A stretch of DNA of 64,000 nt from Mobula hypostoma (GCF_963921235.1 NC_086097.1:4092001-4156000); one strand, 5' to 3'; shown: positions 2,601 through 59,094, numbered from the stretch's first letter. Notes: generated by a model from the sequence alone, not told the origin. Made by a program: numbers and translations.

Positions 2601-5600
2601 CCATAAGACATAGGAGCAGAATTAGGCCATCTGGCCCATAGAGCCTGCTCCGCCATTCAATCACAGCCTACCATTTTTTTTTACCTCCTCCTCAACCTCA
2701 GTTCCCGGCCTTTTCCCTGTAACCTTTGATACCATGTCCAATCAAGAACCTATCAAGCTCTGCCTTAAGTATACCCAATGGCCTGGCCTGCACAGCTGCA
2801 CATGGCAACAAATTCCACAAATTCACCACCCTTTGGCAAAAGAAATTTCTCTGCATCTCTGTTTTGAAAGGGCACCCCTCTATCCTGAGGCTGAGACCTC
2901 TTGTCCTTGACTCGCCCACCATGGGAAACATCCTTCCCACATCTACTCTGTCTAGGCCTTTCAAAATTTGAAAAGTTTCAATGAGATCACCCCTCATCCT
3001 TCTGAATTTAGGCAAGTACAGACCCAGAGCCATCAAATGTTCCTTGTATGATCATCCTTTCATTCCTGGAATCATCCTTGTGAAGCTTCTCTGGACCCAC
3101 TCCAATGTCAGTACACTTTTTCGAAGATGAGGGGCCCAAAACTGTTCACAATACTCAAGTTGAGGCCTCACCAGTGCCTTATAAAGCCTCAGCATTACAT
3201 CCTTGCTCTTGTATTCTAGATCTCCTGAAATGAATGCTAACATTGTATTTGCCTTCCACACCACTGACTCAATCTGCAAATCAACCTTTAGGGTGTTCTG
3301 CACAAAGACTCCCAAGTCCCTTTGCATCTCAGATTATTGGATTTTCTCCCTGTTTAGAAAATAGTCTGCACATTTACTTCTACTACTACAGTGCATGACC
3401 ATGCATTTTCCAACATTGTATTTCAATTGCCACTTTCTTGCTCATTCTTCTAATCTGTCTAAGTCCTTCTGCATCTTACCTGTTTCCTCAGTACTACTTG
3501 CCCCTCCACCAATCTTTGTATCATCTGCAAACTTAGCAACAAGGCCATCTATTCCACCATCTATTCCATCATCTAAATCATTTATATACTGCATAAAAAG
3601 AAGTAGTTCCAATACTGACCCCTGCGGAACTCCACTAGTCACTGGCAGCCAACCAGAAAAGAATCCTTTTATTCCCACTTGCTGCTTCCTACAAATCAGA
3701 CAATGCTCTAACCGTGTTAGTAACTTTCCTGTAATACCGTGGGCTCTTAACTTGGTAAGCAGCCTCATGTGTGGCATCTTGTCAAAGGCCTTCTGAAAGT
3801 CCAAATACACAACATCCACTGCATCCCCTTTATCTATCCTACTTGTAATCCCCTCAAAGAATTCTAACAGGTTTGTTAGGCAAGATTTTCCCTTAAGGAA
3901 ACCATGCTGACTTTGTCCCATCTTGTCCTATGATACCAAATATTCCATAACCTCATCCTTAACAACTGAGTCCAACACCTTCCCAACAACTGAGGTCAGG
4001 CTAACTGGTCTATAATTTCCTTTCTGCTGCCTTCCTCCTTTCTTAAAGAGTGGAGTGACATTTGCAATTTTCCAGTCCTCTGGCACCATGCCAGAGTCCA
4101 ATAATTTTTGAAAGATCATTTCTAATGCCACCACAATCTCTACCGCCATCTCTTTCAGAACCCTAGGGTGCTTAAGGTAAAAGAACCATTAGAAACCAGT
4201 TCATCCGGTTCAGGTGACCTATGTACCTTTAGGTCTTTTTAGCTTTCTGAGCACCTTCTCCCTTGTAACAGTAACTGCACTCACTTCTCTTCTTTCACAC
4301 ACTACAACATCAGGCATACTTCTAGCATCTTCCACAGTGAAGATTGATGCAAAATGCCAGAGTCCAATGATTTTTGAAAGATCATTACTAATAATTCCAC
4401 AATCTCTACCGCTACCTCTTTCAGAACCCTAAGGTGCAGTTCATCTGGTCCAGATCACTTATGAGTAACTGCACTCACTTCTCTTTCCTCATACCCTTCA
4501 ACACCTGGCGCACTGCTGGTATCTTCCACAGTGAAGACTGATACAAAATACTCATTTAGTTCATCAGCCATCTCCTTGACGCCCGTTATTATTTCTCCTG
4601 CCTCATTTTCTAGCGGTCCTTTATTTACTCTCATTTCTCTTTTATTTTTAACATACTTGAAAAAACTTTTATTATCCACTTTGATATTATTTTCTAGCTT
4701 GTTTTCATATTTCATTGTTTCCTTTCTGATGATTTTTTGCTCTCTGTAGGTTTTTGAAAACTTCCCAATCCTCTATCTTCCCACTAATTTTTGCTTTGCT
4801 GTACACCCTTTCTTTTGCTTGTACAATAGCTTTGACTTCCCTTGTCACCATGGTTGTACTGTTTTACCATTTGAGTATTTCTTCATTTTTGGAATATACA
4901 TGTCCTGCACCTTCCTTATTTTTCCCAGAAAAGCACGTCGTTGCTGCTCTGCGGATATTCCTGCCAGCAGCTCCTTCCAATCTACTTTGGCCAACTCCTT
5001 TCTCATACCAATGTAATTTCCCTTACTCCACTGAAATACTGCTACATCAGACTTTACTTTGCCCCTATCAAATTTCAAGTTGAACTCAATCTCATTGTGA
5101 TCACTGGTTTCTAATGGTTCTTTTACCTTAAGCTCCCTAATCGCCCCCTGTTCATTACATGACACCCATTCCAGTATAGCTGATCCCCTAGTAGGCTCAA
5201 CAACAAACTGCTCTAAAAAGCTATCTCTTAGGCATTCAACAAACTCACTCTCTTGGGATCCATTACCAACCTGATTTTCCCGTTCAACCTGCATGTTAAA
5301 ATCTCCCTTGACTACCATAATGTTGCCCTTTTGACACGCCTTTTCTATTTCCTGTTGTAATCCGTGGTCCACCTCCCAGACACTGTTGGGAGGCCTGTAT
5401 ATAACTGCCATCAATGTCCTTTTACCCTTGCAGTTTCTTAACTCAAACCACAAGGATTCAACATCTTCTGATCCTATGTCACATCTTTCTACTGATTTGT
5501 TGCCATTTATTACCAGTATAGCTACACCACACCCTCTGCCTACCTTCCTATCCCTCCAATTTAACGTGTAACCTTGGACGTTCAGCTCCCAATTACAACC

Positions 5601-11357: not shown

Positions 11358-12104
11358 CACAGATGAAAAGAGTTTGGCAAAAAAATCTGAAAGGCACATG
11401 AGGACAAACTTTTGTTTTGTGCAAGGTGAGTTGAAGGTTTGGAATTGCTCTTTTATTAGTTATTTAATTTCTTTTATTCTTAGTTTTATGGACATAGGAA
11501 TCCATCTGTGTTCTAAACTGTCTGGAGTAATAGTACATGCATGTTCAGCTGCAGCATTCGAAAGAGATCTGCATAAGGGTCTGAAAGGGAAAAAGATTGC
11601 AAGGTTATGGAAGAGAGGACGTGTGAATGGGACTTAATTTTTCTCAGATAAAAGCAATAATATTTCAGCAGTCTGCATGGCTACTTTCTATGCTGTAACA
11701 GTTGTGGTTAGATGCTTAGACCACTTGGAATGTTTTTGTACCTATGAAAATGTTTATGGTCCACTTGAAACCTGTAACAATTATCTTACCTGCTTCCTAA
11801 GTTGAAATAGGTTCATTTCCCAATTAAGTAGGACACTCATGTCATCTGTTGCATCACCCATTGCTTCCTTGGGATTTTTGCATTCTACTAATTTTTCTTC
11901 AATTTCCCTGAGGAGACACCCAATTAAAATCATATTAAATCCTGCAAAGCATGCTTGACTTAAGCTCTTATATGTCCTAATTATTTTTCTTAGTTTTATG
12001 GACATAGTAATCCATTAAGGCAGAAACTCTCTGCAAAAAAGATTAGGGTAGCCTTCCTTCTCCCTTCAACACTATAGTATACAAGAAGACAACAAAAGTG
12101 GTAG

Positions 12105-12389
12105 TTCAAGCAACACACATCAAAGTTGCTGGTGAATGCAGCAGGCCAGGCAGCATCTCTAGAAAGAGGTACAGTCGACGTCTCGGGCCGAGACCCTGCA
12201 TCAGGACTAACTGAAAGAGCCAAATCTCTTACTAGCTCTTCTTTCAGTTGGTCCTGACGAAGGGTCTCGGCCCGAAACGTCGACTGTACCTCTTCCTAGA
12301 GATGTTGCCTGGCCTGCTGCGTTCACCAGCAACTTTTATGTGTGTTGCTTGAAATTCCAGCATCTGCAGATTTCCTCGTGTTTGCGTTT
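12105..12389. mobile_element. Inverted pair of Penelope terminal-repeat fragments
   Basis: ~12105-12225 is the reverse complement of part of ~12235-12389; same family as 28371-28800. Confidence 0.85.
12245..12286 (+). ncRNA. Minimal hammerhead ribozyme motif (best-preserved sense copy)
   Basis: GTC-CTGACGA(12254-12260)-AGGGTCTCGGCCC-GAAAC-GTC(12279-12281)-GAC. Confidence 0.7.
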
Positions 12390-12589
12390 TAAAAAATATG
12401 GTAATTCCATTGTTGTTTTGGTCCCCTTTGCCCCTGGAATAAGACTTTCTTCTCTGCAACTCATCTGCAATGCAGTTGGCATATAACAACTGCTCATTCC
12501 ACAATATGAACTTTGGCACCTGGAATGTTGTAGTTCTCAAGGACAATATCAAAAGTAATAGACCTGAACATGGCTCCGTTATCACAGGC

Positions 12590-14475: not shown

Positions 14476-17400
14476 ATCCAGTTGCTGTGGTCCATGTGGG
14501 TCCCAACAATATAGGTAAAATGAGGAAAGAGATTCTGCTGAGGAAGTTTGAGCAGTTAGGGACTACATTAAAAAGGAGAACCAAAAAGGTGGTAATCTCT
14601 GGATTACTACTTTAGCCATGTGCAAATTGGTATTGGGTCAGGAAGCTTAGAGAGTTAAATGCGTGACTCAAGGATTGGTGTGGGAGAAGTGGGTTTGACT
14701 TCATGGGAAAATTAGCACCAGTATTGGGGAAGGGGGGAGCAGTACCAATGGGACGGGCTCCACCTGAACTGTGATGGGATCTGGATCCTACAAAATCACA
14801 TAATTAGGGCTGTGGACAAGGCTTTAAACTAAATAGTCGGGGGGTGATTTCAACAGATTGGAGAAATAAAGTAAAAAAGAAAAGTGTGGATAAAGATAAA
14901 GAAAAAGCAAAAGGTAAAAAAAGAGAAAAGTAAGAGTGGGGTGAAGAAAAGTTAAGTGCAAAAGAGTAAAAGCTTACAAGATTTTAAAAGCACAATGAGT
15001 GTAAATGCACTTTATTTGAATGCCTGTAGTATTCAAAACAAACTCAGTGAACTTGTGGGCACATATCAGTACAATGGGGTATGATTTAGTGGCCATTACA
15101 GAGATGTGGTTGCAGGGTGGGGAAGACTGGGAAGTAAATATCCAAGGATATCAGGTAATATGGAAGGATAGGCAGGACGGTAATGGAGGTTGGGTGGTGT
15201 TCTTAATTAAAGATGAAATCAGGGTGATGATGAGAGATGATATAGGATCTAAGGAGCAGAATATTGAATCCATCTGGGTAGAGATTAGGAATAGTAAAGG
15301 GAAAAAATCACTGTGGGAGTTGTTTGTAACATTACAGTGCCACAGGAAATAAACAAAGAAATATCTGAGGCACGTAAGAATGGAACAGCAGTTATCATGG
15401 GGGACTTTAACTTGCTCATAGCTTGAGAAAATCAAGTTGGTCGAGGTAGTCTTGAGGACTTCATAGAATACATCTGTCATCGCTCTCTCGGACATCATGT
15501 TACTGAACCTACAAGGGAATGTGCTACTTTAGATCTGGTCCTGTGCAACGAGACAGGTAAAATTAGTGATCTTGTAGTTAGGGATCCTCTTGGAAAGAGT
15601 GATCACAGTATGACTGAGTTTCTCATACAAATGAAAGGTGCAACAGTTTGATCTTAAACCAGTGAATTATGCCTAAACAATGGAGACTACAATGGGATGA
15701 GGGAGGATTTGGCTAGTGTAGACTGGGAACACAGACTATATGGTGGAATAGTTGTGGAACAGTGGAAGACTTTCAAAGAGATTTTTCACGGTGCTCAACA
15801 AAAGTTAAAAGCAGTTAAATGCTAGGACAGTGAGGGTGGGGAGAGCCAGCCTTGGATAACTAAGGAAATAAAAGAAGGCATCAAATTAAAAGTTGGTGTG
15901 TTGAAAGTCACCAAGAATAATGGGAAACTGGAAGATTGGGAAAACTTTAAAAAGCGACAAAGAGCCACTAAGCAAGCAATAAAGAAAGGGAAGCTAGATT
16001 ACAAAAATAAACCAGCACAAAATATAGAAACAGATAGTAAAAGTTTTTATAATTATATAAAGCGTAAAAGGGTGGCGAAAGTGAACATAGGTCCTTTGGA
16101 GGATGAGAAGGGATTGATATTAGGTAATGAGGAAATGGCAGAGACTTTGAATGACTTTTTTGTGTTGGTCTTCATGGTGGCAAACGTGTCTAACATGCCA
16201 AAGAGAGATGTTATGGTTGTGATGGGAGATGAGGGCCTCAAGACAATAGCTATCACTAAAGAGTAGTGCTGAGCAAACTTCTGGGCCTGAAGATAGACAA
16301 GTACCCTCATCATGATGGAATGCATCCCAGTGTACTGAATGAAATGGCAGCACTTACAGTAGAGGCTTTGGTGATAATTTACCAAAATCCTCTGGACTCT
16401 GGGCAGGTCCTAGCAGATTGGAAGACAGCGAATGTTATGCCACTGTTCAAAAAAGTAAGCTGGCAGAAGGCAGGCAACTATAAGTTAGTTAGTTTAACAT
16501 CTGTAGTTGGGAAAATGCTTGAAGCTAATTTAAAAAAGAAATAGTGAGGCATCTGGAAAGAAATGGATCCATCAGGTAGACACCTCATAGATTCAGCAAA
16601 GGCAGCTCCTGTTTGACAAACTTACTGGAGTTCTTTGAGGATATAAGAAACACAGTGGATAGAGGGGAACAGATGGACGTTATTTACTTGGATTTCTAGA
16701 AGGTGTTCGATAAGGCGCCACATAAAAAACTTATTCATAAGATAACGATGCATAGAGTTGGGGGGTGATGTATGAGCATGGATAGAGGATTGGTTAACTA
16801 ATAGAAAGCAGAGTTGGGATACATGGGTGTTTCTCTGGTTGGCAGACGGTGGTGAGCGGGGTGCTGCAGGGGTCGGTGCTGGGCCTGCAACTGTTCACGA
16901 TACATGTTAACGATCTGGAAGAGGGGACTGAGTGTAGTGTATCTAAATTTGCCGATGATACTAAATTGAGTGGAAAAGGAAATTGTGCAGAAGATATGGA
17001 GAGCTGGCATAGTGATAAAGATAGGTTCAGTGAGCGGGCAAGGGTCTGACAGATGGAGTACAATGTTGGTGAATGCGAGGTCACCCACTTTGGAAGGAAA
17101 AATGAAAGAGCAGATTACTTAAATGGTAAAATATTGCAGTATGCTGCTGGGCAGAGGGACTTGGGAGTGGTTGTGCATGAATCACACAAGGTTAGTTTGC
17201 AGGTGCAGCAGGCTATCAAGAAGGCAAATGGAATATTGTCCTTCATTGTGAGAGGGATTAAATTTAAGAGCAGGGCTGTTATGCTGCATCTGTAAATGGT
17301 ACTGGTGAGGCTGCACCTGGAGTACTGTGGGCAGTTCCGGTCTCCTTACTTGAGGAAAGATATACTGGTTTTGGAAGCAGTGCGGAGGAGGTTCCCCACA

Positions 17401-17878
17401 TTGGTTCCAAAGATGAGGGGGTTAGACTATGAAGAATGATTGAGTCTCTTGGGACTGTACTTGCTGGAATTCAGAAGAATGAGAGGAGATCTTATAGAAA
17501 CATATAAAATTACAAAAGGGACAGATAAGGTAGAGATAGGAAAGTTGTTTCTACTGGTAGGTGAGACTAGAACTAGAGGACATAGCCTCAAGATTTGGTG
17601 GTGTAGATTTAGGACAGGGATGAGGAGGAACTCCTTTTCCCAGAGAGTGTTGAATCTGTGGAATTCTCTGCCCAATGAAGCAGTGGAGGCTACCTCAGTA
17701 AATATATTTTAAGATAAGGTTAGATATATTTTTACATAGTAGGGGAATTAAGGGTTATGGGGAAATGGCAGGTACGTGGAGGTGGGTCCATGGCCAGATC
17801 AGCCCTGATCTTATTGAATGGTGGAGTAGGCTCTATGGGCCAGATGGCCTACTCCTGCTCCTATTTCTTATGTTCTTA
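14476..17878 (+). mobile_element. CR1 LINE from ORF1 C-terminus to 3' tail, degenerate
   Basis: VHVGPNNIG and DGLHLN esterase motifs, APE (AITEMWL), RT (KFADDTK), CTTATGTTCTTA tail. Confidence 0.9.
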
Positions 17879-17954
17879 AATACAATGTTGGAAAATGCAT
17901 GGTCATGCATTTGGTAGTAGAAATAAATGTGTGGTCTATTTTATAAATGAAGCG

Positions 17955-18152
17955 TGTACCGTATAGCCTACAGTATAATAAGGGACTACTTTATGTTTTA
18001 GTAACACGTCATTGAATGTGCTATTAGGCGCGTATTGATCTATAGGTGTGTGCCGAGTTCAGTTTCTGCCTGTAAAGAACCATGAACCTTAGTTCCCGTC
18101 TCCAGCATTTTTATTAATAGCATTATTGTGTAACCAGGCCACATACACAACA
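17955..18152 (+). repeat. 5' LTR (198 bp)
   Basis: TGTACCGTATAG...CATACACAACA. About 9 substitutions relative to 22188-22410 by manual alignment; lacks one 25-bp internal repeat unit. Confidence 0.95.
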
Positions 18153-18154
18153 AA

Positions 18155-18166
18155 TTGACGATGAGG
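18155..18166 (+). promoter_or_regulatory. Primer-binding site (degenerate)
   Basis: TTGACGATGAGG, 2 nt after the 5' LTR; two transitions from the TGGCGACGAGG PBS typical of Mag-like Gypsy elements. Confidence 0.7.
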
Positions 18167-18534
18167 GTAATGAACCTACATCGTATTGGAACGCCGTGTT
18201 TTAATTCATAATGACACTCGGAAGAAGAGCGCAAGGAACGAGCCAAGGAGTGGGAGAAGGAGGCAGAGCGAGGCCGCGAGTCTGAAAGGAAGCTGGAACA
18301 CAGCCAGGGTTGGGAACATCGGGAAACCAAGAGACACAGTCGGAGCCACAGCACATCCAGCTGAGACCACAGTCGGCGCTGACCCCCAGGGGCTGAAGGT
18401 CTGTCTGCCCCAGAAGGGAGATAAAAAGGAGTGACACACACATCTAGATGGAGTGTGCTCGTGGCGCTAGCAAAAAGGACATGTGAGTCAAAAAGAAAAC
18501 AAGGGGAGAACGGGGCTTAATTAACATAACAAAG

Positions 18535-18940
18535 ATGGCGATGATCGGAACCATTACAGCATTTGATAGTGGCATTGAAGACTGGGCAACTTACGTTGAC
18601 AGAGTGGAGTTATAGTGTGAGGCTAGCAGTGTTAATGATGGAAAGAAAGCCAGTGTCTCACTCAGTATTATGGGAGCAAAAACATAAACTGGCTGCTATG
18701 GAGCTTGTTAACCCCTGAAAAGCCAGTTGACAAAACATTCAAACAAATAGTAGACACTCTCCAACAGAGTTTAAACCCCAAACCACTGGTCATTGCTGAA
18801 AGATTTAAATTTCACAATTGGAATCAGAGCAAAAATGAAAACATTTCTGAATGTTGTGCTGAATTGTGCAAATTATCAGAATATTGTCAATTTGAAGCTG
18901 GTCTATCGGACGCATTGAGGGACAGGTTAGTGTGTGGCAT
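18535..18940 (+). pseudogene. Gypsy gag N-terminal part, disrupted
   Basis: MAMIGTITAFDSGIEDWATYVDRVEL* then ...PKPLVIAERFKFH...LRDRLVCGI, typical Mag-like gag motifs. Has an internal stop and frameshift. Confidence 0.85.
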
Positions 18941-19002
18941 TGTAACGGGGTCCTGAATTACCCCTATGAACTGTGCTTTTGAAAAGAGAGACATGTTGTT
19001 TT

Positions 19003-19039
<37 letters not shown>

Positions 19040-19100
19040 AAGACTAACTTTTGGACTGTCACTTTAAGGCACAAGAATAACTTTTGGATTTCTGCTGAGT

Positions 19101-19137
<37 letters not shown>

Positions 19138-19220
19138 AGAGGGAGCAAGAGAGAGAGAAGGAGAGGGAGCACCGAGCAGCTTGTAATTTGCTATGGTGAT
19201 CGAGGGCGGCGTTATTTGAT
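18941..19220 (+). mobile_element. Truncated LTR-like insertion from a second element, with (GA)n tracts
   Basis: Starts TGTAACGGGG exactly where gag similarity stops; contains (GA)n at ~19005-19036 and ~19082-19147; no matching CA end seen. Confidence 0.5.
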
Positions 19221-19649
19221 GCCCCACCTCCCCCTCGTACCCCATCCGTTATTTATTTATAAACACACATTCTTTTTCTCTCTCTCATTTTTCTCCTTGT
19301 CCCTCTCACTATACCCCTTGCCCATCCTCGGGGTTCCCCCCGCCTTTTCTTTCTCCCTAGGCCTCCTTTCCCATGATCCTCTCATATCCCTTTTGCCAAT
19401 CACCTGTCCAGCTCTTGGCTCCATCCCTCCCTCTCCTGTCTTCTCCCATCATTTCGGATCTCCCCCTCCCCCTCCCACTTTCAAATCTCTTACTAACTCT
19501 TCCGTCAGTTAGTCCTGACGAAGGGTCTTGGCTGAAACGTCGACTGCACCTCTTCCTATAGATGCTGCCTGGCCTGCTGCGTTCACCAGCAACTTTGATG
19601 TGTGTTGCTTGAAATTCCAGCATCTGCAGATTTCCTCGTATTTGCGTTT
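19221..19649 (+). mobile_element. Penelope-like element terminal repeat / 3' UTR with hammerhead motif
   Basis: Reverse-complement match to 28371-28800, beginning at the base after that element's stop codon. Confidence 0.9.
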
Positions 19650-19875
19650 TCTCACATACCTCTGAAACGAACTAAACTACTGCTAAAGGCTTACACAGGA
19701 CAGAAAGTGCATCCCAAAGGTAAAATTAAAGTGACAGTGACCTACGGAGACGAAACACAGCAGCTTAACCTCTATGTACTGAAAAACAGAGGACCACCGT
19801 TGCTGGGACGGGAATGGCTCAGGAAAATCCAGTTGGATTGGCACACCATCAAGGCACTAGATGTGTTAACAAAGG
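19650..19875 (+). pseudogene. Gypsy aspartyl protease C-terminal half
   Basis: [23 protein letters not shown]...[16 protein letters not shown], with the LLGRxWL retropepsin motif. The catalytic DTG half is missing upstream. Confidence 0.85.
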
Positions 19876-19895
19876 AGGGCAGCTTGGCAGGGAAG

Positions 19896-20553
19896 ATGTC
19901 CACAGCTCTTCTCTCACCCATTGTCGACTATTACAACGACGAGGAGGAGCTAGACATCATCGACAATGAGGATGAACGCAGTATCCGTGGCCGTGACTCA
20001 GATGAAGGTATAGAGGATGCAGGTGAGACAGATATTGCCAATAAGCAGGATGATGAAGACTACCTGGAAATAAAAGAGCAGATGTACCAGGAGAAATTGA
20101 CATCTCTCAAAATACAGCTACAGCAGTTACAGGAAGGCACTTTGCAGGAGTATCAGAAAAAGATGAAGAAACTAGATCAACAATACTGTATAAGAAAAGA
20201 ATATGAAATGCAGAGCTTTTTCTGCAACTGAAGACAGAACAAGTGGAAAGGAATTATATTAAACAGAAGAAAGCAGCAGTGAAGGAATTTGAAGATAAAA
20301 AGATTGAGTTAGAAGAAAAGAAAAAGATGATTGAGAATGAGAGGCTAATAATGGAAATCACAGGAGATTCTATGGAGGTAAAGTCAATAACAACTAGGAA
20401 ACTAAGGAGGAGACCTAATGACCCTGTTCCAATTACAGACAAAAGACAAAAACCTGCACCTGCGCAGTTAAATTACTTGTTCACAGATGAACAGATAATG
20501 GAAGACCTGCGAACTGTCAATAAGCTTAAATCTTCGAAAAGACCAACATCTTC
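19896..20553 (+). pseudogene. SUDS3: Processed SUDS3 (Sin3A-HDAC subunit SDS3) retrocopy, 5' part
   Basis: MSTALLSP...KEQMYQEKL...[24 protein letters not shown]...[19 protein letters not shown]...[13 protein letters not shown]...[24 protein letters not shown], matching recalled vertebrate SUDS3 with no introns. Has a ~5-bp insertion frameshift and TGA near 20185-20204, and an 8-codon deletion. Confidence 0.95.
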
Positions 20554-21504
20554 ATTCAAACAGAACAGCTTTCGCACAAGGTAAATCTGGAACCAATTGT
20601 TTCCTCCATTGAGAATTATTCACTTCATCCTTTGCAGGAAAGTTTCTTTTGCACGTACATATTTTGAATCCTCAGCCAATGTGTCTTGTTTTTCACAAAG
20701 AAGTTGGGAAACAGCATCAGAACAGAGGCGAATTCTGGCAACAAACTGTAAGGTTTATATTGTTGTATTTTCACACTTGTGCTGAATGTGCACCTGAAGG
20801 AATTCTCCCTCTTGAGCCAGACAGATAGCACTGCAGGTAATCCTTAATATCAGCAAAACTGTACTTTAACAGCAGCTTAAGAACAATGGAACGAACAACA
20901 GGATTTCGATCAACTGCTTCATCGAATGGTGAATGATTACTGATAAAGTACTGATCTTTCTGTGAGTTATTGGTTTGCCCTGACTTTTGAATAACTAGCA
21001 GAGACAGCAGATCACCAACCACTTCTTTGTTGGTGGCAAGTCATCTTTGAAGCAGACCATGGAAACCGAAGCTATGAAAAATGCGTCACACCTCTTGTGA
21101 AATATGACTAATTTTGCTGCAACTTCACTTATTTCTTCTGTTACTGCTGGTACATAATCATCATCTAGAGCAGTACGGCACAGTGGGCAGAGTTGTTGTC
21201 CTGATTCAAGCCACCGCTTTATACATTTTAAACAGTAAAAATGATCACATGGAAGCAGGATGGGATTGTTGAGTTCTCCTAAGCAAATTGTACATTCTTG
21301 CAGATCATACCTGAAGAACAGACATCCTGCACTATTTTTACAGTCCCTGAGGATCTGAACCACAGCCCGAAAGAGCCCTCAGGATCTCACATCAGAGTTA
21401 CTGTTCAAACTCTTTGCAAGTTGACCAGCGTAGAATACAACCTTGTTCTCCAATTTATCATGGATTTCTTTAACTCCCAAAATGATGTGTTCCACAGAAA
21501 GTGA
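20554..21504 (-). pseudogene. RNF213: Intronless RNF213 (mysterin) cDNA fragment spanning the RING domain
   Basis: LSVEHIILG...NSDVRS; CTICLGELNNPILLPCDHFYCLKC...CPLC (C3HC4 RING); VCFKDDLPP; SPFDEAVDRNPVVRSIVLKLLLKYSF; then, in another frame, LQFVARIRLC...[12 protein letters not shown]. All match recalled RNF213. Several stops and frameshifts. Confidence 0.9.
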
Positions 21505-21910
21505 CAGCATCTCCGTTTTCTCCTGAACATCTTCCCAGCACTCCTGTTGAAACACTAGCTCAAAGATATGAAGCACGAATAGAAGATGGAAAGTTATATT
21601 ATGATAAGAGATGGTATCATAAAGGTCAGGCTATCTATTTAAAATCTAAGGAGAATACAAAGATTGACTGTGTAATTAGCTCAGTTGGAACAAATGAGAT
21701 ATGGGTAAGGAAGACAAGTGATAGCACAAAGATGCGTGTATATCTAGGACAGCTGCACAGAGGAGTCTTCATTACACGGAGGCGATCTGCTGCCTAGAAC
21801 TCTTAGCAAGTTGGAGGCGCACATCTTCTTAACTCCCTATGCTCAGAGGTCAACTTTTCATGACTTTTATATGGAAATCTGTATTAAAACAAACAAGTTT
21901 ATTAACAGTC
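21505..21910 (+). pseudogene. SUDS3: Processed SUDS3 retrocopy, 3' part plus partial 3' UTR
   Basis: [13 protein letters not shown]...[18 protein letters not shown]...[20 protein letters not shown]...RRRSAA* (stop ends 21797), then ~110 nt of putative UTR with ATTAAA at 21883 and no poly(A). Confidence 0.93.
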
Positions 21911-21962
21911 ATTACCCAGAGAGGCCGAGAAGATCCCCCCCCCAAGAGACTTGAGTTATAAA
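21911..21962 (+). pseudogene. Extreme C-terminus of Gypsy integrase
   Basis: YPERPRRSPP(K)RLEL*, resembling the RYPxRxRxPPxRL ending of Gypsy pol; slippage in a C-run. Confidence 0.6.
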
Positions 21963-21991
21963 TGGGTCTTAGACCAAATGTAAAAAAAAGA

Positions 21992-22077
21992 CTTGTTATA
22001 ATTTGATATTATTACATAACTTTGTTATAATTTGGTATTATTACGCTACTTTGTTATAATTTGATATTATTAAGCTA
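21992..22077 (+). repeat. Three ~29-bp tandem repeats in the retrotransposon 3' untranslated region
   Basis: Unit CTTTGTTATAATTTG(A/G)TATTATTA...A seen three times. Confidence 0.85.
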
Positions 22078-22174
22078 TTAAGTAAACAAACAGTAGGCGT
22101 TTGTATGTTAAGGGTAAACATATTTGTTTAGCATAGTGCCCCAATAAAAAAAACAGTTGATACACCATTAAAAT

Positions 22175-22187
22175 AAAAGGGGAGGAG
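22175..22187 (+). promoter_or_regulatory. Polypurine tract
   Basis: AAAAGGGGAGGAG directly abutting the 3' LTR. Confidence 0.9.
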
Positions 22188-22410
22188 TGTACCGTATAGC
22201 CTACAGTATAATAAGGGACTACTTTATGTTTTAGTAACACGTCGTTGAATGCGCTATTAGGCGCATATTGAGCATGCGCTATTAGGCGCGTATTGATCTG
22301 TAGGTGTGTGCCGAGTTCAGTTTCTGCCAGTAAAGAACCATGAACCTTAGCTGCCGTCTCCAGCGTTTTTATTATTAGCATTGTTGTGTAACCAGGCCAC
22401 ATACACAACA
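22188..22410 (+). repeat. 3' LTR (223 bp)
   Basis: Direct copy of the 5' LTR with an extra 25-bp unit GCGCTATTAGGCGCATATTGAGCAT. Confidence 0.95.
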
Positions 22411-23576
22411 AAGAGAAAATCCAAAAATCTGAGATGCAAAGGGACTTGGGAGTCCTTGTGCAGAACACCCTAAAAGTTGATTTGCGGGTTGAGTCAATGG
22501 TGAGGAAGGTAAATACAATGTTAGTATTCATTCCAAGAGATCTGGAATACAAGAGCAAGGATGTGATGCTGAGGCTTTATAAGGCACTGGTGAGGCCTCA
22601 CCTTGAGTATTGTGAACAGTTTTGGGCTCCTCATCTGAGAAAAGATATGCTGGCATTGGAAAGGGTTCAGAGGAGGTTCACAAGGATGGTTCCAGGAATG
22701 AAAGGGTTATTATACGAGGAATGTTTGTTAGCTCTAGATCTGTACTCACTGGAATTTAGAAGGATGGGGTGGGGTGGGAGGACCTCACTGAAACCTTTCA
22801 AATGTTGAAAGGCCTAGGCCCTAGATAGTGTAGATGTGGAAAGGATGTTTCCCATGGTAGGGGAGTCCAGGACAAGAGGACACAGCCTCAAGATAGAGGA
22901 GAATCCATTTAGAACAGAGATGTAAAGAAGTTTCTTTTGCCAGAAGGTGGTGAATATGTGGAATTTATTATCAAGGGCACCTGTGGAGGCCAGGTTGTTG
23001 GGTGTATTTACAGAAGAGCTTGATAGGTTCTTCATTGGACACATCATCAAAGGTTACAGGGAGAAGTCCGGGGAGTGAGGCTGTGGAGGGGAGAAAAGAA
23101 TCAGCCAGGTCTGGATGGCTGAGCAGACTCAATGAGCTAATTGGTCTAATTCTGCTGCTCTGTCTTATGCTCTTATCCTTTATTGATCCCAAAGGAAATT
23201 ACAGGGTCACAGTAGCATTGTGCACAGATAAACAAATATTCAAATATTAGAAGAGAAGTAAGAAAGAATAAAAAAACAAATTACCTCAAATAGTCTAACA
23301 GGAGGGTGTCATCACTTCCCCGGCTATAGGTTGACTCATTACAGAGCCTAATGGATGAGGGTAAGAATGACCTTGTATTGCACTCTTTGGAACAGCGCAG
23401 TTGTCTTAGTCTGTTACTAAAAAGTGCTCCTCTGATCAGCCCAGGTGTTATGCAGAGAATGTGAATCATTGTCCGGAATTGACACTTGTGAAATCAAAAA
23501 AACATGATCCTCACAGTGCTGGCAGAGCAGACTTGATGGGCCAAATGGCTTAATTTTGCTCCTAAGTTTTATAGTC

Positions 23577-28370: not shown

Positions 28371-31300
28371 AAACAACAGGAATTCTGCAGATGCTGGAAA
28401 TTCAAGCAACATACATCAAAGTTGCTGGTGAACGCAGCAGGCCAAGCAGCATCTATAGGAAGAGGCGCAGTCGACGTTTCAGGCCGAGACCCTTCGTCAG
28501 GACTAACTGAAGGAAGAGTGAGTAAGGGATTTGAAAGCTGGAGGGGGAGGGGGAGATGCAAAATGATAGGAGAAGACAGGAGGGGGAGGGATAGAGCCGA
28601 GAGCTGGACAGGTGATAGGCAAAAGGGGATACGAGAGGATCATGGGACAGGAGGCCTAGGGAGAAAGACGGGGGGGGGGGGTTGACCCAGAGGATGGGCA
28701 AGAGGTATATTCAGAGGGACAGAGGGAGAAAAAGGAGAGTGAGAGAAAGAATGTGTGCATAAAAATGAGTAACAGCTGGGGTACGAGGGGGAGGTGGGGC
28801 CTAGCGGAAGTTAGAGAAGTCAATGTTCATGCCATCAGGTTGGAGGCTACCCAGACGGAATATAAGGTGTTGTTCCTCCAACCTGAGTGTGGCCTCATCT
28901 TTACAGTAGAGGAGGCCGTGGATAGACATGTCAGAATGGGAATGGGATGTGGAATTAAAATGTGTGGCCACTGGGAGATCCTGCTTTCTCTGGCGGACAG
29001 AGCGTAGATGTTCAGCAAAGCGGTCTCCCAGTCTGCGTCGGGTCTCACCAATATATAAAAGGCCACATCGGGAGCACCGGACGCAGTATATCACCCCAGT
29101 CGACTCACAGGTGAAGTGATGCCTCACCTGGAAGGACTGTTTGGGGCCCTGAATGGTGGTGAGGGAGGAAGTGTAAGGGCATGTGTAGCACTTGTTCCGC
29201 TTACACGGATAAGTGCCAGGAGGGAGATCAGTGGGGAGGGATGGGGGGGACGAATGGACAAGGGAGTTGTGTAGGGAGCGATCCCTGCGGAATGCAGAGA
29301 GAGGGGGGGAGGGAAAGATGTGCTTAGTGGTGGGATCCCGTTGGAGGTGGCGGAAGTTACGGAGAATAATATGTTGGACCCGGAGGCTGGTGGGGTGGTA
29401 GGTGAGGACCAGGGGAACCCTATTCCTAGTGGGGTGGTGGGAGGATGGAGTGAGAGCAGATGTACGTGAAATGGAGGAGATGCGTTTAAGAGCAGAGTTG
29501 ATAGTGGAGGAAGGGAAGCCCCTTTCTTTAAAAAATGAAGACATCTCCCTCGTCCTAGAATGAAAAGCCTCATCCTGAGAGCAGATGCGGCGGAGACGGA
29601 GGAATTGCGAGAAGGGGATGGCGTTTTTGCAAGAGACAGGGTGAGAAGAGGAATAGTCCAGATAGCTGTGAGAGTCAGTAGGCTTATAGTAGATATCAGT
29701 GGATAAGCTGTCTCCAGAGACAGAGACAGAAAGATCTAGAAAGGGGAGGGAGGTGTCGGAAATAGACCAGGTAAACTTGAGGGCAGGGTGAAAGTTGGAG
29801 GCAAAGTTAATAAAGTCAACGAGTTCTGCATGCGTGCAGGAAGCAGCGCCAATGCAGTCGTCGATATAGCGAAGGAAAAGTGGGGGACAGATACCAGAAT
29901 AGGCACGGAACATAGATTGTTCCACAAACCCAACAAAAAGGCAGGCATAGCTAGGACCCATACGGGTGCCCATAGCTACACCTTTAGTTTGGAGGAAATG
30001 GGAGGAGCAAAAGGAGAAATTATTAAGAGTAAGGACTAATTCCACTAGACGGAGCAGAGTGGTGGTAGAGGGGAACTGATTAGGTCTGGAATCCAAAAAG
30101 AAGCGTAGAGCTTTGAGACCTTCCTGATGGGGGATGGAAGTATATAAGGACTGGATATCCATGGTGAAAATAAAGCGGTGGGGGCCAGGGAACTTAAAAT
30201 CATCGAAAAGTTTAAGAGCGTGAGAAGTGTCACGAACATAGGTCGGAAGGGATTGAACAAGGGGTGATAAAACAGTGTCGAGGTATGCAGAAACGAGTTT
30301 GGTGGGCAGGAGCAAGCTGAGACAATAGGTCGGCCAGGACAGGCAGGTTTGTGGATCTTGGGTAGGAGGTAGAAACGGGAAGTGCGGGGTGTGGGAACTA
30401 TAAGGTTGGTAGCAGTGGATGGGAGATCCCCTGAGCGGATAAAGTCATTGATAGTGTGGGAGACAATGGCCTGGTGCTCCTTAGTGGGGTCACGATCGAG
30501 GGGTAAATAAGAGGAGGTATCCGCGAGTTGTCGCTGTGCCTCGGCAAGGTAGAGGTCAGTACGCCAGACTACAACAGCACCCCCTTTATCAGCGGGTTTA
30601 ATAATAATGTTAGGATTAGTGCGGAGGGAGTGGAGAGCAGAGCGTTCCGAAGGAGTGAGGTTGGAATGGGAACAAGGTGCGGTGAAGTCGAGACGGTTGA
30701 TGTCCCGTCGGCAGTTAGCAATAAAGAGATCCAGAGCAGGCAGAAGACCAGAGCGGGGTGTCCATGAAGAAGAGGAGGGTTGAAGATGGGAGAAGGGGTC
30801 ATCGGTGGGGGTGGAAGAGTCCTTGCCGAAGAAGTAGGCTCGGAGACGGAGACGGCGGAAGAAAAGTTCCACATCGTGGCGAACACGGAACTCGCTGAGG
30901 TGTGGGCGAAGGGGGACAAAGGTGAGGCCCTTACTGAGGACAGAGCGTTCTGCCTCCGACAGTTGAAGGTCGGAGGGGATGGTAAAGACCCGGCACGGAT
31001 GAGAGCTGGGATCAGAGGGGGGAGGGGGGAGGCTGGGGGTGTCAATGGAGAGGGGAGGGTTGGGGTGAGAGGAAGATGGAGCCTCTGAGGACCCAGGAGT
31101 TGACGGTGGGATCTGAGGAAGATGGGGCTGCGGAGTGGTGGTGGGGGAAGGGGAGACGGGAGTCACAACAGCAGCACATAAAGACCCGGCCTGGAGTTCA
31201 AGGCTGGAGTCGCAGTTGGTGGTTGTGCAATCACTTCGAATGTGTCCATGGTCGTTGCTGGAGTCCGGGTTTTGAATATGTCCTGAGGTGTTGGAGCCGC

Positions 31301-54340: not shown

Positions 54341-57190
54341 ATAGATTCACCACCTTCTAGCCAAGCTGTCTAGCTGTTAATGGTATTGCTATGAGACACC
54401 TGGGACCAAATGCCAGTTTGAACAAATGTGTAAACAGCATTCCTGACAAAAAGAGATGTGTCCTTTGCTTCGCTTTTCTCCTTCTCCCGTGGAGGGTCAG
54501 ACATCCTGAGCCAATAGACTGGTCCTGCACTTACTTTCCATCTGGCATAGTTTGCATTTTGTTGTTTGATTGTTGGGGTTTTTGTATTGCTATATTTACG
54601 CTCTATTCTTGGTTGGTGCGGCTGTAACAAAACCAAATTTCCCTCGGGATTAATAAAGTATATCTATCTATCTATCTATTCTGTCCTTGGATTCAAATTG
54701 TACAGTTATTTCAGTCTAAATCCATGAGCCCTAGTCACTACAGCTACATTAACGATTGTTTTTAATGTTTATAATTACTTCTTTAATCTGTTATTCAAGC
54801 TTGAGTTCGTTTAATTGTCATTTAACCATACATGGATGTCCATAGATACAGCCAAACAAAACAGTGTTAGTCTGGGGGCCAAGGTGCGAAAGTTTTACAC
54901 AGCATGAAACATATATAGCATATATAATTACATTAGAAGTAAACATATAGTCACAAAAAAATAATAACATGGCCCAAGTCCCTGAACGTCATGTTCTGTA
55001 AATTGATGGGGCGTGGGATGTTTGACAGCAAGAACAAGCCCAAGGCAGTCCGATCATCACGCACTAGTGCAGCCAGAGCCGAATACGAACCAGCTTGTCT
55101 TCCACTGAGCGAACAATGGAGAGCATCACTGATGGGAGAAGCCAGCCCCATCCCAGCTTGGATGCTTGCCTCGCCATACTGCGTCTGGCATCACCTATCA
55201 CCTGCCCTGGGTGGCTGCAACAGGCGCCCTCCTACACCAGGGCCTGGTCTGTGCTACAATAGTTTGAATGCTCCTACTACTTGCCAAATTAGAATATTGC
55301 TATGAAGTTATTTTTCTGCTAAGCCAACAGGAGCATTGAAGTTTATTGTTTGAACATAGTACAAAATGAACACACAGCATTCTAGTCAGAATACCCTCTT
55401 GAACTTATTCCATTTGTCTCAATCTAAATGCTGCACATCACCTTATACGTGAATAATTGCATTACCATTGATTAATGTTTTTATTGTGCAGAGTTTCTGT
55501 GATTATAGAATTACTTTAGTACATCAACCAAGTTAATAGCAATTAAAACACGTTACATTTTACAATATGAGATGACACTTACATAGGTTCATATGCTACG
55601 TGCAGAAGTTCCATGTTCTCAGGGATGGCAAGCATGCTGTTATGCATAAAGTAATTTGAGACACAGAAAGTCCTGATTGAAAATAACCCCTTCTATTGTT
55701 GACATGTACAGTGTAAATAAAGCAGATTATTATCATAAGCTCCTGACTCTCTTTGATTGACAGACAAATAATAACTTGCATTCTTATGGCAGATTTTAAC
55801 AGAGAAACATTATCAATCAGATTGTGTCAACAAATCCCCTAAGGAGATGTGTGTGTGAACATTACTCCTGTTTCTGTTTCTTGTGTGGGCACTTTGGTCT
55901 CATTCCTGCCGTGCCCAGTTAATGCCTGTGTATGTCGAGGGAAATTAGTAAAAGCAAAAACAGAAAACTTTTCCATTGTGTCTCCTGATTGATGAACAAA
56001 TCATAACAATTGGTTATGTGGTAACTACATAGAAGTCTGTTGCTGTATTTCACATGGCATTTCAAAAACTAAGGATTCATCTGTTAGCAATCAATATCAT
56101 TTTGCATGAAATTATAATTTGATTTTAATGCTAAATCACATTCTTTTGGGAAATGAAGCTGTGCAAGTGATTGAAGCGTCAGTGAGAGAGCACTTTTGGA
56201 CTAGTGACCATAATTCATACTTTTAAAATAGTAATGAAAAAATACTCCACCAGATCAAGTTTTAAGTTTAATTGTCATTCAGCCATACACATGAATACAG
56301 CCAAACAAGACATTGTTCCTGAGGGGCCAAGGTGCAAAACACAGTTCTATCAGTCACACACAGTACAAGGTGGCTGTAAAACATACAGCCATAAAAATAA
56401 TAATTAATATAGCCTGAGTCCCTGATGTCATGGCCTGTAGATTAATAGTGCATGGAATGATTGTCCTGGAGCCAAGTTTCTGCAAGATCAAGCATGTATA
56501 GTAGTTCTTCATCGCGCATTGTGTAGCTGTAGATGATCATAATCCGACTTGTTTTCCTCTGAACAAACAATGGAGGGCAGTACTGAATGGAGGGGCCAAC
56601 CTTTAACCCAGCCGCACTGCACCGCCTCTGATGTCTCCTCCCCTGTGGGGGGTGGGGCTGCCACAGATAACCTTGCAGCATGAGGGCCTGTTCCACTCTA
56701 CAACTGAGGCCAGGCAGCTCCCCCGCCATCGGCCCGCTAACGAGCCAATGGACTTACAGTATTCTACATTGCCACACATTGAAGTTCTAAATTGGGGGAA
56801 GGCTGGTTTTGATGCTATTAGACTATCAGGAGATAAAAAAGCAAGTTAGAGGTTTTTAAAAGTGAGATAGGGCAAGTACAGGGTTAACATGTTTGTGTTA
56901 AAGTTAAAGGCAAGGTTGACAGAATTAGGGAACCCTTACTGATGAGAGGTATTAAGGCTCTGATCAGGAAAAGGAAGGAGCCATATGTCAAGTGGATCCT
57001 ACTGGGAAGAAGTAAATCCCTTGAGGAAGGGAGTATACCATTAGGGAGTGCAAGTAAGAAGTATTAGGGGAAGTAAGGGGCCAGGAGATATCCTTGACAG
57101 ATTAGTTTTACGGAGAATGTTATGTAAGTCTATTGGTATATATAAGAGCAAAAGAGTAACTAGTGAGAAAATAGGTCCCCTTAAAGATTA

Positions 57191-57402
57191 CATCAAAGTT
57201 GCTGGTGAATGCAGCAGGCCAGGCAGCATCTCTAGGAAGAGGTGCAGTTGACGTTTCAGGCCGACGAAGTCCTGACGAAGGGTCTTGGCCTGAAACGTCG
57301 ACTGCACCTCTTCCTAGAGATGCTGCCTGGCCTGCTGCATTCACCAGCAACTTTGATGTGTGTTGCTTGAATTTCCAGCATCTGCAGAATTCCTGTTATT
57401 TG
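57191..57402. mobile_element. Inverted pair of Penelope terminal repeats with 14-bp TSD
   Basis: TSD CCCCTTAAAGATTA at 57177-57190 and 57403-57416; sense hammerhead motif at 57268-57304; inserted in a decayed CR1. Confidence 0.9.
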
Positions 57403-58193
57403 CCCCTTAAAGATTAGCTGTCATTTATGTGTGAGGCTACAGTAGATGTGTAAGGTTTTAAATTAATACTTCTCGTTTTTACTTAGGATGGAAAAGATCA
57501 TGGTAGCTAAGTGATTGAGATAAAATGCAATAAAGGTTAACCAGAGTGATTCCTACGATGGGGGAATTATTCAGATTGGAAAAAATTAAGCAGGCAGTCT
57601 GTGAACGAGAGGGTATGGCAGGGTAGATCTTTCCCCCACCCCCTGCAATTACTGTGTCTAGAACAAGTGGTTAAAATGAAGAGGTGCTCTTTCAAGAGTG
57701 AATTTCATAACCCAGAGCATAGGGCATCTTTGGAATGATCTAGTCACAAGGACTGGGGTAAATTCAAGACTGTGATTAATAGATTTTTGCATATTAGAAT
57801 TACTGTTCCCACAACCTTTAGACTCACTTTTAAGGAATCTTCATCTCATATTCTCAATATTTATTGTTTATTTATTTATTATTATTATTGTTGTTATTTT
57901 TATTATTCTCTTTTGTACGTGCAGTTTGTTGTCATTTGCATATTGGTTGTTTATCTGTCCCGTTGGGTGCAGTCTTTCATTGATTCTATCGTTTCCTGGA
58001 TTTACTGAGTATGCCCAGCGGAAAATGAATTTCAGGGTTTTATATGGTGTCAGATATGTACTTTGATAATTAATTTACTTTGAACTTTGTGTATAGAAAA
58101 GTGATGCTGAAGAATATTTCCTCTCATTTTTTATTTTCTGCTGTCTGTCTCATTCTGTTTGAAGGAGTAAGTTTAATTGTTTTTTTTTTGCAG

Positions 58194-58296: not shown

Positions 58297-58664
58297 GTAA
58301 GTTGCACTAGTAACAGAGTGACAAGTTTTGGACAATTGAAAATATTATATCAGTAAATGGCATCATACTAATTTCAATTACCTTGCAAGGCCATGGTAGC
58401 AATATTCAAATGTCTGGTCCCACCACTATCCTGTATCAGAAAAGATTATGCTACATACTGTAGTATTAACATTGTAAATATTACAATTTCCAGGAGGTCA
58501 AAGAATTCTGTGGGCTGACATAGAGTATTTAATGACAGAATGGAAAAACACAAATTGCTTTTCGATACATTTGCCTTTGAAAAGTTCATCTGCTTTATTC
58601 TCTGAATTGTTTTGTTTTTAGTGTCCAGACTAACCTCTCTCAGTCATCACCCCTTTATTCCTGC

Positions 58665-59094
58665 AAACAACAGGAATTCTGCAGATGCTGGAAATTCAAG
58701 CAACACACATCAAAGTTGCTGGTGAATGCAGCAGGCCAGGCAGCATCTATAGGAAGAGGTACAGTCGACGTTTCGGGCCGAGACCCTTCGTCAGGACTAA
58801 TTGAAGGAAGAGTTAGTAAGAGATTAGAAAGTGGGAGGGGGAGGGGGAGATCCAAAATGATAGGAGAAGACAGGAGGGAGAGGGAATCACCTGTCCAGCT
58901 CTTGGCTCCATCCCTCCCCCTCCTGTCTTCTCCCATCATTTTGGATCTCCCCCTCCTCCTCCCACTTTCAAATCTCTTACTAGCTCTTCCTTCGGTTAGT
59001 CCTGATGAAGGGTCTCGGCCCGAAACATCGACTGTACCTCTTCCTAGAGATGCTGCCTGCCCTGCTGCGTTCACCAGCAACTTTGATGTGTGTT
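58665..59094. mobile_element. Inverted pair of Penelope terminal repeats with 16-bp TSD
   Basis: TSD ACCCCTTTA(T/A)TCCTGC at 58649-58664 and 59095-59110; inverted arms of about 180 bp. Confidence 0.9.

Follow-up and report, generated by a model that had tools for sequence, protein, structure and literature searches.

The stretch of DNA analyzed here, called the window, comprises 64,000 nucleotides of Mobula hypostoma (GCF_963921235.1 NC_086097.1:4092001-4156000) and is numbered on one strand, 5' to 3'. At positions 17950-22415 it carries a complete but decayed Ty3/Gypsy element bounded by long terminal repeats (LTRs), in which complementary DNA (cDNA) of two host genes, SUDS3 and RNF213, occupies the place of most of pol. 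A first-pass annotation had proposed a Gypsy LTR element at this position, and every feature it listed was recovered at or within a few bases of where it had been placed. The element is very probably a decayed copy of a high-copy, pol-less Ty3/Gypsy family that carries host cDNA, made by template switching and spread by mobilization in trans. Its features are listed below, together with matches to L053, an autonomous relative of the family in the same genome, and to public contigs of the cargo genes (TSD, target site duplication; PBS, primer binding site; PPT, polypurine tract; CDS, coding sequence; UTR, untranslated region).

17950-17954, no strand: 5' TSD AAGCG, identical in 4/5 positions to AAGAG at 22411-22415
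17955-18152, plus strand: 5' LTR, 198 nt, TG..CA, aligning to the 3' LTR
18156-18166, plus strand: PBS, 3 nt past the 5' LTR, decayed by two transitions in the window copy
18535-18940, plus strand: N-terminal part of gag, ~135 codons with in-frame stops, homologous to gag of the family copies and of L053
18941-19645, no strand: unrelated repeat DNA (GA microsatellites and a dispersed SINE-like repeat), with repeat copies elsewhere in the window
19646-19883, plus strand: C-terminal tail of the protease, 92.9% identical to L053, the last part in common with the autonomous element
19877-19883, plus strand: microhomology GGGCAGC (7 nt) of the 5' junction; L053 matches to 19883, SUDS3 contigs from 19877
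19884-20553, plus strand: SUDS3 cDNA, part 1, with 12 nt of 5'UTR, the ATG at 19896 and CDS, frameshifted in the window copy
20554-21503, minus strand: RNF213 cDNA fragment (RING region), 950 nt, antisense to the element and inside SUDS3
21504-21797, plus strand: SUDS3 cDNA, part 2, to the stop at 21795-21797, aligned with SDS3 proteins
21798-21910, plus strand: truncated SUDS3 3'UTR, 113 nt, the last 5 nt (CAGAC in family copies) forming the microhomology of the 3' junction
21911-21961, plus strand: pol tail (C-terminal integrase), 51 nt, 16 codons and a stop, aligning to L053 4574-4625
21962-22187, plus strand: 3' untranslated region of the element with the PPT at its end, common to L053 and all family copies
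22175-22187, plus strand: PPT AAAAGGGGAGGAG, adjoining the 3' LTR
22188-22410, plus strand: 3' LTR, 223 nt, TG..CA, with a 25-nt tandem duplication that is not in the 5' LTR
22411-22415, no strand: 3' TSD AAGAG, pairing with the 5' AAGCG

Replacement of pol and the junctions of the cargo

L053 was the best match in a genome search with the Gypsy polyprotein P0002, to which it is colinear over residues 2-1311. It measures 4,862 bp and has both LTRs, a perfect TSD (CTGGT) and a pol region colinear with the 1,311-aa Gypsy polyprotein; no env was seen in it, the internal region of ~4.3 kb being filled by gag-pol. The window matched L053 at 17955-18940 (87%), 19646-19883 (93%), 21906-21961 and 22027-22410, and between the matched blocks L053 holds 2,687 bp of pol, encoding reverse transcriptase (RT), RNase H and integrase, where the window holds the cargo. 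Since the L053 match breaks off at 19883 and resumes at 21906, these 2,687 bp are replaced by the cargo rather than supplemented by it, as the first-pass annotation had maintained. The integrase tail of ~50 nt described there corresponds to the 51-nt pol tail, which aligns with L053 at the 3' end of pol and resembles by eye the C-terminus of P0002. In agreement with the same annotation, no RT, RNase H or integrase core was found in the window element, and neither a poly(A) nor a duplication or TSD surrounds SUDS3 in the window or in the copies aligned with L053.

The identities of both cargo genes were established by searches of PDB and protein databases, Pfam being uninformative (only a sub-threshold Sds3 match and generic RING matches for the broken open reading frames (ORFs) of the window). 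In a PDB sequence search, the intact 311-aa copy L016 matched solved SDS3 chains (E 1e-37); the identity was also seen by alignment to ray SDS3 proteins, and the nearest named proteins were devil-ray SDS3. The RNF213 piece matched PDB entries at residues 4009-4128 and 4125-4195 (E 7e-32 and 8e-16), and a 44-aa ORF at its far end had no PDB match. Thus, SUDS3 and RNF213 had both been named correctly at first reading, and SUDS3 does run from ATG to stop with UTR sequence; what had escaped notice is that the RNF213 piece is antisense and interrupts the SUDS3 reading frame rather than standing beside it.

Contigs from four public runs were aligned to 19640-22190. These runs were judged to be transcriptomes because runs of only 74-166 million letters each gave contigs of 16-35 kb; among the public runs listed as containing window sequence there was no RNA run, and DNA-like runs of five organisms contain a quarter to a third of the sampled words of the window. 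The SUDS3 contigs (three runs, three organisms) match the window only from 19877 on, where they are preceded by GC-rich sequence foreign to the element. The same contigs skip 20544-21504 and carry 24 nt without counterpart in the element copies. Judged by their sequence, they would represent the parental mRNA. The SUDS3 cargo is colinear with them and with SDS3 proteins. One SUDS3 contig leaves the alignment into intron-like sequence at ~21615, and differences between annotated ray SDS3 isoforms imply exon borders inside the captured stretch. Four genome searches were directed at the parental SUDS3 locus. The best non-self match of a SUDS3 3'UTR DNA query and the best match (98%) of an N-terminal 62-aa query were both rejected as element copies, the former on fetching; a C-terminal 60-aa query returned element copies only, and a degenerate exon-intron pattern guessed from an annotated SDS3 isoform had no genome match.

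As the L053 match extends to 19883 and that of the SUDS3 contigs begins at 19877, the 5' junction contains a microhomology of 7 nt. At the 3' junction of the window form (F1), CAGAC is common to the SUDS3 3'UTR and to pol at the switch point, and the SUDS3 transcript contigs continue in the UTR where the element changes to pol. A second form of this junction (F2) contains ~213 nt more of the SUDS3 3'UTR, with pol joined 18 nt further on. The borders of the RNF213 insert share TCC (3 nt) on the left and CAGC (4 nt) on the right. A comparison of the junctions with the autonomous element and parental mRNA, which the first-pass annotation had suggested, therefore gave microhomologies of 7, 5, 3 and 4 nt for the 5' junction, the F1 3' junction and the left and right RNF213 borders, respectively.

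These junctions bear on two other routes of capture. A SUDS3 processed pseudogene could have been made by a LINE in a pre-existing Gypsy copy, followed by deletion of pol and spread of the composite. LINE fragments are abundant around the element, and a 2026 preprint (10.64898/2026.06.26.734816) ascribes vertebrate retrocopies generally to non-LTR elements in the parts consulted. The cargo itself does not look like such a product: it has no poly(A), its 3'UTR is truncated and no TSD surrounds it. Both of its ends adjoin element sequence with microhomology, pol is replaced and not interrupted, and the 5-bp TSDs and paired LTRs are the work of an LTR-element integrase. We regard this route as highly improbable.

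The read-through or deletion fusion of an element lying in or upstream of a host gene is the textbook origin of gag-onc fusions. Applied to SUDS3, this retroviral type of capture would leave only the 3' junction to template switching, with a normal genome packaged alongside as partner, and the in-frame fusion of Gag, protease (PR) and SUDS3 described below resembles the products of that route. The 5' junction argues for a different course of events, in that it lies in the SUDS3 5'UTR, 19 nt before the ATG, at a 7-nt microhomology and without intron or upstream genomic sequence, and read-through sequence was present in none of the 8 copies aligned at the junction. Such a 5' junction is what the two-switch model predicts, as presented in the passages of PMC5131818 considered here. 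Read-through capture is therefore a very unlikely origin, and template switching at both ends is preferred.

At the RNF213 insert, 10 nt of SUDS3 stand on both sides of the insert (CAGCATCTCC in family copies). This repeat fits an exit from the SUDS3 template followed by an imprecise return better than an insertion at a staggered cut. RNF213 contigs of 12.1 and 3.8 kb extend antisense through the insert and past both of its ends. Compared with the element, the RNF213 transcript has 125 nt without counterpart at ~20819, a difference of the size of an exon, which may have been skipped. The transcript also has one extra base, without which the b-form copies read lose the RNF213 frame after the RING.

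Copy number, independent insertions and variant forms

Genome searches with parts of the element returned large numbers of candidates at first look. The SUDS3 5' part (DNA) gave 419, with 40 of 40 scored at 91-100% identity over essentially the full length. The N-terminal 62 aa and the C-terminal 60 aa of SDS3 gave 432 and 344, respectively, and all 150 candidates scored for each query matched. For the RNF213 piece (DNA) there were 156 candidates (40 scored, 41 matches), and for the LTR (DNA) 1,506 (40/40 scored at 92-100%). The family with SUDS3 cargo comprises about 340-430 candidate loci and is thus far from the single copy that the first-pass annotation had set against an amplified family. 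A DNA query with the RT region of L053 gave 1,343 candidates, 40 of 40 being scored at 91-100%; the notion that cargo-bearing copies outnumber RT-bearing ones was rejected (~430 vs ~1,343 candidates).

TSDs were compared in 10 cargo-bearing copies, including that of the window, in which both LTR ends were located. They agreed in 5/5 positions in six copies and in 4/5 positions in three, and were unreadable in the tenth, which has a truncated 5' LTR. The six perfect TSDs (ACAGG, CTCCT, GATAG, GACAA, CTCTC, and TAGTC) all differ from each other, while the internal junctions are common to the copies, as had been anticipated for an amplified family. Common junctions with differing TSDs demonstrate repeated integration of one chimera. 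A 3' flank that L041 and L050 appeared to have in common proved to be a chance match of only 9 nt.

Large repeat-rich genomes can in principle show collapsed or duplicated repeats, and spread of the family by segmental or tandem DNA duplication, or its appearance by an assembly artefact, would not call for integration at all. Nothing specific speaks for this explanation. The copies lie on many contigs, with differing flanks and differing perfect TSDs; they form a star tree (see below) and are also found in contigs of several independent public runs, so that duplication or artefact is barely conceivable.

Two marks are common to the copies. All 24 copies compared lack the same 24 nt (8 residues) of SUDS3, a gap that is bounded by a 6-nt direct repeat; these residues are present in the putative parental mRNA contigs and in true ray SDS3. 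Furthermore, the protease frame continues without a stop into the SUDS3 ATG in 7/7 copies read, from which it follows that the founder encoded a Gag-PR-SDS3 fusion. The in-frame join would be expected by itself at a chance of one in three. Most of the "SUDS3 retrocopies" of this genome trace to one capture by an LTR element.

Classification of 31 loci revealed all four combinations of RNF213 insert and 3' junction: RNF213 with F1 (13 loci), RNF213 with F2 (3 loci), no RNF213 with F1 (2 loci), and no RNF213 with F2 (7 loci). One locus is a leader-to-RNF213 deletion derivative with CAAA microhomology, and five were too incomplete for classing. The copies with long flanks (n=20) were picked from the top of two hit lists, and the proportions of the forms are accordingly not a census. 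That all four combinations exist calls for recombination at least once, or else for one event to have recurred in identical form; it is naturally read as copy-choice between family RNAs packaged together. In L046, a 311-nt piece across the RNF213/SUDS3 border is re-inserted at 1536-1846, replacing the leader. In L022, the leader is joined straight to RNF213 at the CAAA microhomology (1440-1560). Both rearrangements are further products of template switching.

A maximum-likelihood tree of 24 copies (901 columns) was a star: not one of its 21 inner branches had good support, and the terminal branches had a median of 0.042. The LTR pairs of 9 copies are 4.5-10% diverged and that of L053 9%, and RT-bearing copies have about the same spread of identities as the cargo copies (91-93%). 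The amplification looks like one old burst that included all forms and ran alongside the RT-bearing copies. The star shape gives no order of origin for the forms with and without RNF213.

The pairwise dN/dS of SUDS3 was 0.55 in the true frame vs 0.49 and 0.79 in the two wrong frames. As the true-frame value lies within the range of the wrong-frame values, the cargo decays without visible constraint. One copy, L038 (= L016), retains a fully open 311-aa SDS3 frame at 1500-2432, and among the 150 scored N-terminal matches the open frame around the match reached up to 573 aa; the surviving open SDS3 frames are about what neutral decay leaves by chance. The 8 residues absent from the element copies are also missing from several 311-aa "SDS3-like" predictions of Mobula birostris and M. 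hypostoma; annotation pipelines have named several element copies as "SDS3-like" genes.

Might the cargo have been more than a passenger? A Gag-protease-SDS3 fusion might work as a decoy or dominant-negative subunit in the SIN3-HDAC corepressor and so lift transcriptional silencing from the family, and the antisense RNF213 sequence might curb an E3 ligase induced by interferon. That the two together served as a counter-defence built from captured host genes is, in our estimation, very unlikely. In a weaker version, at least one open 311-aa SDS3-like copy, annotated as a gene in two Mobula species, would be a functional paralogue.

Cis signals, gag-protease region and surrounding repeats

In the better-kept family copies, the PBS reads TGGCGACGAGG, an 11-nt complement of the 3' end of tRNA-Ser(GCT) including the CCA. 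A tRNA pattern based on it had 12 genome matches compared to 0 for a control, and the match that was fetched was called tRNA-Ser(GCT) by ARAGORN; the assignment of the PBS follows from these two results. ARAGORN found no tRNA gene within the window.

The two LTRs of the window differ at 9 of 200 aligned positions and by one indel, the 25-nt tandem duplication (18025-18050 vs 22258-22283). Besides the window element, at least 5 full copies (L040, L041, L048, L049, and L052) have LTR pairs made unequal by this duplication, the longer form being either the 5' or the 3' LTR, depending on the copy. The LTRs of one element are expected to be identical at integration. The 25-nt repeat must therefore slip often, during reverse transcription or afterwards.

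The gag-protease region of the family is a single frame of ~390 codons, 59-64% identical to Gypsy polyproteins of ~1,311 aa with RVT_1, RNase H, and rve domains. Its translations contain two CCHC-type knuckles and a D-T-G-S-A protease motif, recognized by eye, and a Pfam search with them yielded no significant domain. Thus, the Ty3/Gypsy gene order (Gag with CCHC, protease, RT-RNaseH-integrase) is found at the level of the family, and the window copy lacks the last three. In-frame stops and frameshifts are present in the window copy, which has additionally lost ~551 bp of gag-protease, a loss overlooked in the first reading: in the position of the repeat DNA at 18941-19645, other family copies hold about 530-553 bp with the gag zinc knuckles and the protease active site.

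The SINE-like repeat within this segment measures ~200-420 bp, with 89-95% identity between copies, and recurs in the window at 12099-12390, 28378-28800, 57190-57403, and 58663-59094, sometimes as inverted pairs, e.g., at 58663-59094. Fragments of a LINE RT C-terminal region, 71% identical to each other, lie on both sides of the element (16798-17900 and 22436-23200); the downstream one starts ~25 bp past the 3' LTR.

Origin of the chimera and relation to known systems

The following course of events is proposed. While copying its own genomic RNA, the RT of an autonomous Gypsy element would have switched template and thereby generated the founder. The enzyme may have departed from the element RNA close to the end of pol, at the 5-nt microhomology or nearby, for a co-packaged SUDS3 mRNA. 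Copying of this mRNA would have begun inside the 3'UTR and ended 19 nt before the ATG, followed by a return switch to the element RNA at the 7-nt microhomology directly after the protease. RT, RNase H and integrase would thereby have been lost and LTRs, PBS, PPT, leader, gag and protease retained, with the gag-protease frame leading directly into the SUDS3 ATG. With the abundant and similarly diverged autonomous family as the source of RT and integrase in trans, the chimera could then have been retrotransposed hundreds of times. Further switches during the burst may have produced the 950-nt antisense RNF213 insert with its 3- and 4-nt microhomologies and the re-copied 10-nt stretch, as well as the two alternative 3' junctions, the recombinants and the deletion derivatives. 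The tests run support the earlier proposal of a non-autonomous, gene-transducing element that arose by RT template switching, kept its cis signals and could be mobilized in trans.

Several points weigh against this scenario. Antisense RNF213 is the one feature that ordinary minus-strand copy-choice with an mRNA as template does not directly predict; it would call for an antisense transcript as template, or else for a switch onto the mRNA during plus-strand synthesis. With 7 stops L053 is itself defective, its LTRs share only 84-87% identity with those of the window, and an intact helper is hypothetical. The parental SUDS3 and RNF213 genes were not located in the assembly, and the cargo is called intronless on the basis of colinearity with spliced-looking contigs, isoform differences and the one contig that runs into intron-like sequence. 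The RNA nature of the aligned contigs is a guess, the microhomology given for the 3' junction is that of F1, and the copy numbers are uncurated counts of candidates.

Capture of host cDNA by LTR elements has precedents. Tan et al. (2016; PMC5131818) describe, in the passages drawn on here, LTR-mediated retroposition by microsimilarity-dependent template switching in flies, mosquito, zebrafish, chicken, and mammals; some chimeras combine two or more parental genes, and chimeras act as non-autonomous elements with secondary retroposition. As far as these passages go, their chimeras resemble the present element in that an internal retrocopy lies between discontinuous halves of one LTR retrotransposon, with the internal ORFs partly replaced and neither poly(A) nor TSD around the retrocopy, and in the microsimilarity at the switch points (median 6 bp vs the four values given above). 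Whereas the examples reported there are single- or few-copy (among vertebrates, 5 in zebrafish and 4 in chicken), one capture led to hundreds of copies here, in a cartilaginous fish. Unlike these examples, the present element joins a complete CDS to Gag-PR in one reading frame and contains a further, antisense cargo. No discussion of cargo orientation was found in the passages of PMC5131818 that were searched.

Similarly, maize Bs1 (Jin & Bennetzen, 1994; Elrouby & Bureau, 2001, 2010), as summarized in parts of PMC5131818 and PMC13317346, is a non-autonomous LTR element whose internal region stems from cDNA pieces of several host genes; in contrast to the family described here, it is a plant element with 1-5 copies and contains only partial gene fragments. 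The capture of FAM8A1 by HERV-K (Jamain et al., 2001, as cited in the passages of PMC5131818 used) also involves a vertebrate LTR element, a captured cDNA and microsimilarity at the fusions, but it is a single untranscribed copy. According to the same passages, ETn/MusD and MaLR/MERVL are pol-less, carry the LTRs and cis signals of an autonomous family, and are mobilized in trans to high copy number. Their internal regions are not recognizable host cDNAs, while the element described here still encodes Gag and protease.

A further parallel is found in acute transforming retroviruses, which are replication-defective and helper-dependent, and have pol (and env) replaced by an intronless host cDNA, often as a Gag fusion. 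The present element differs from them as an intracellular, germ-line inherited Gypsy element, with no env in L053 and no sign of a transforming cargo. The resemblance to v-onc transduction would therefore be one of mechanism only.

In the literature covered on SUDS3 and LTR retrotransposons, or on Mobula transposable elements and genome assemblies (the latter by title and start of abstract), no description of this element was found. The mechanism is already known; what is unusual is the extent of the amplification, its occurrence in a vertebrate, and the fusion of SUDS3 in frame with Gag-PR. The 2026 preprint lists SUDS3 among the top retrocopy parents in cartilaginous fishes and relates the numbers to non-LTR elements. 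Its main text, as far as it entered the comparison, mentions neither Mobula nor template switching. The other top parents named in the portion used are MIPOL1, SDF2L1, SLU7, and ZNF276, whose "retrocopies" might likewise be cargo amplified by transposable elements rather than the result of repeated independent retroposition.

Since the SUDS3 copies of this genome trace to one capture, treating each as an independent event would inflate censuses of retrocopies and tests of selection. The family is a natural case, from a vertebrate and preserved in unusual depth, in which a plain Gypsy retrotransposon transduced genes in the manner of a retrovirus. Its copies bear the record of subsequent template switching and of the second capture, in antisense, and include recombinants, and the family can be used for studying how frequently, and at which sites, the RT of an LTR element switches template in vivo.

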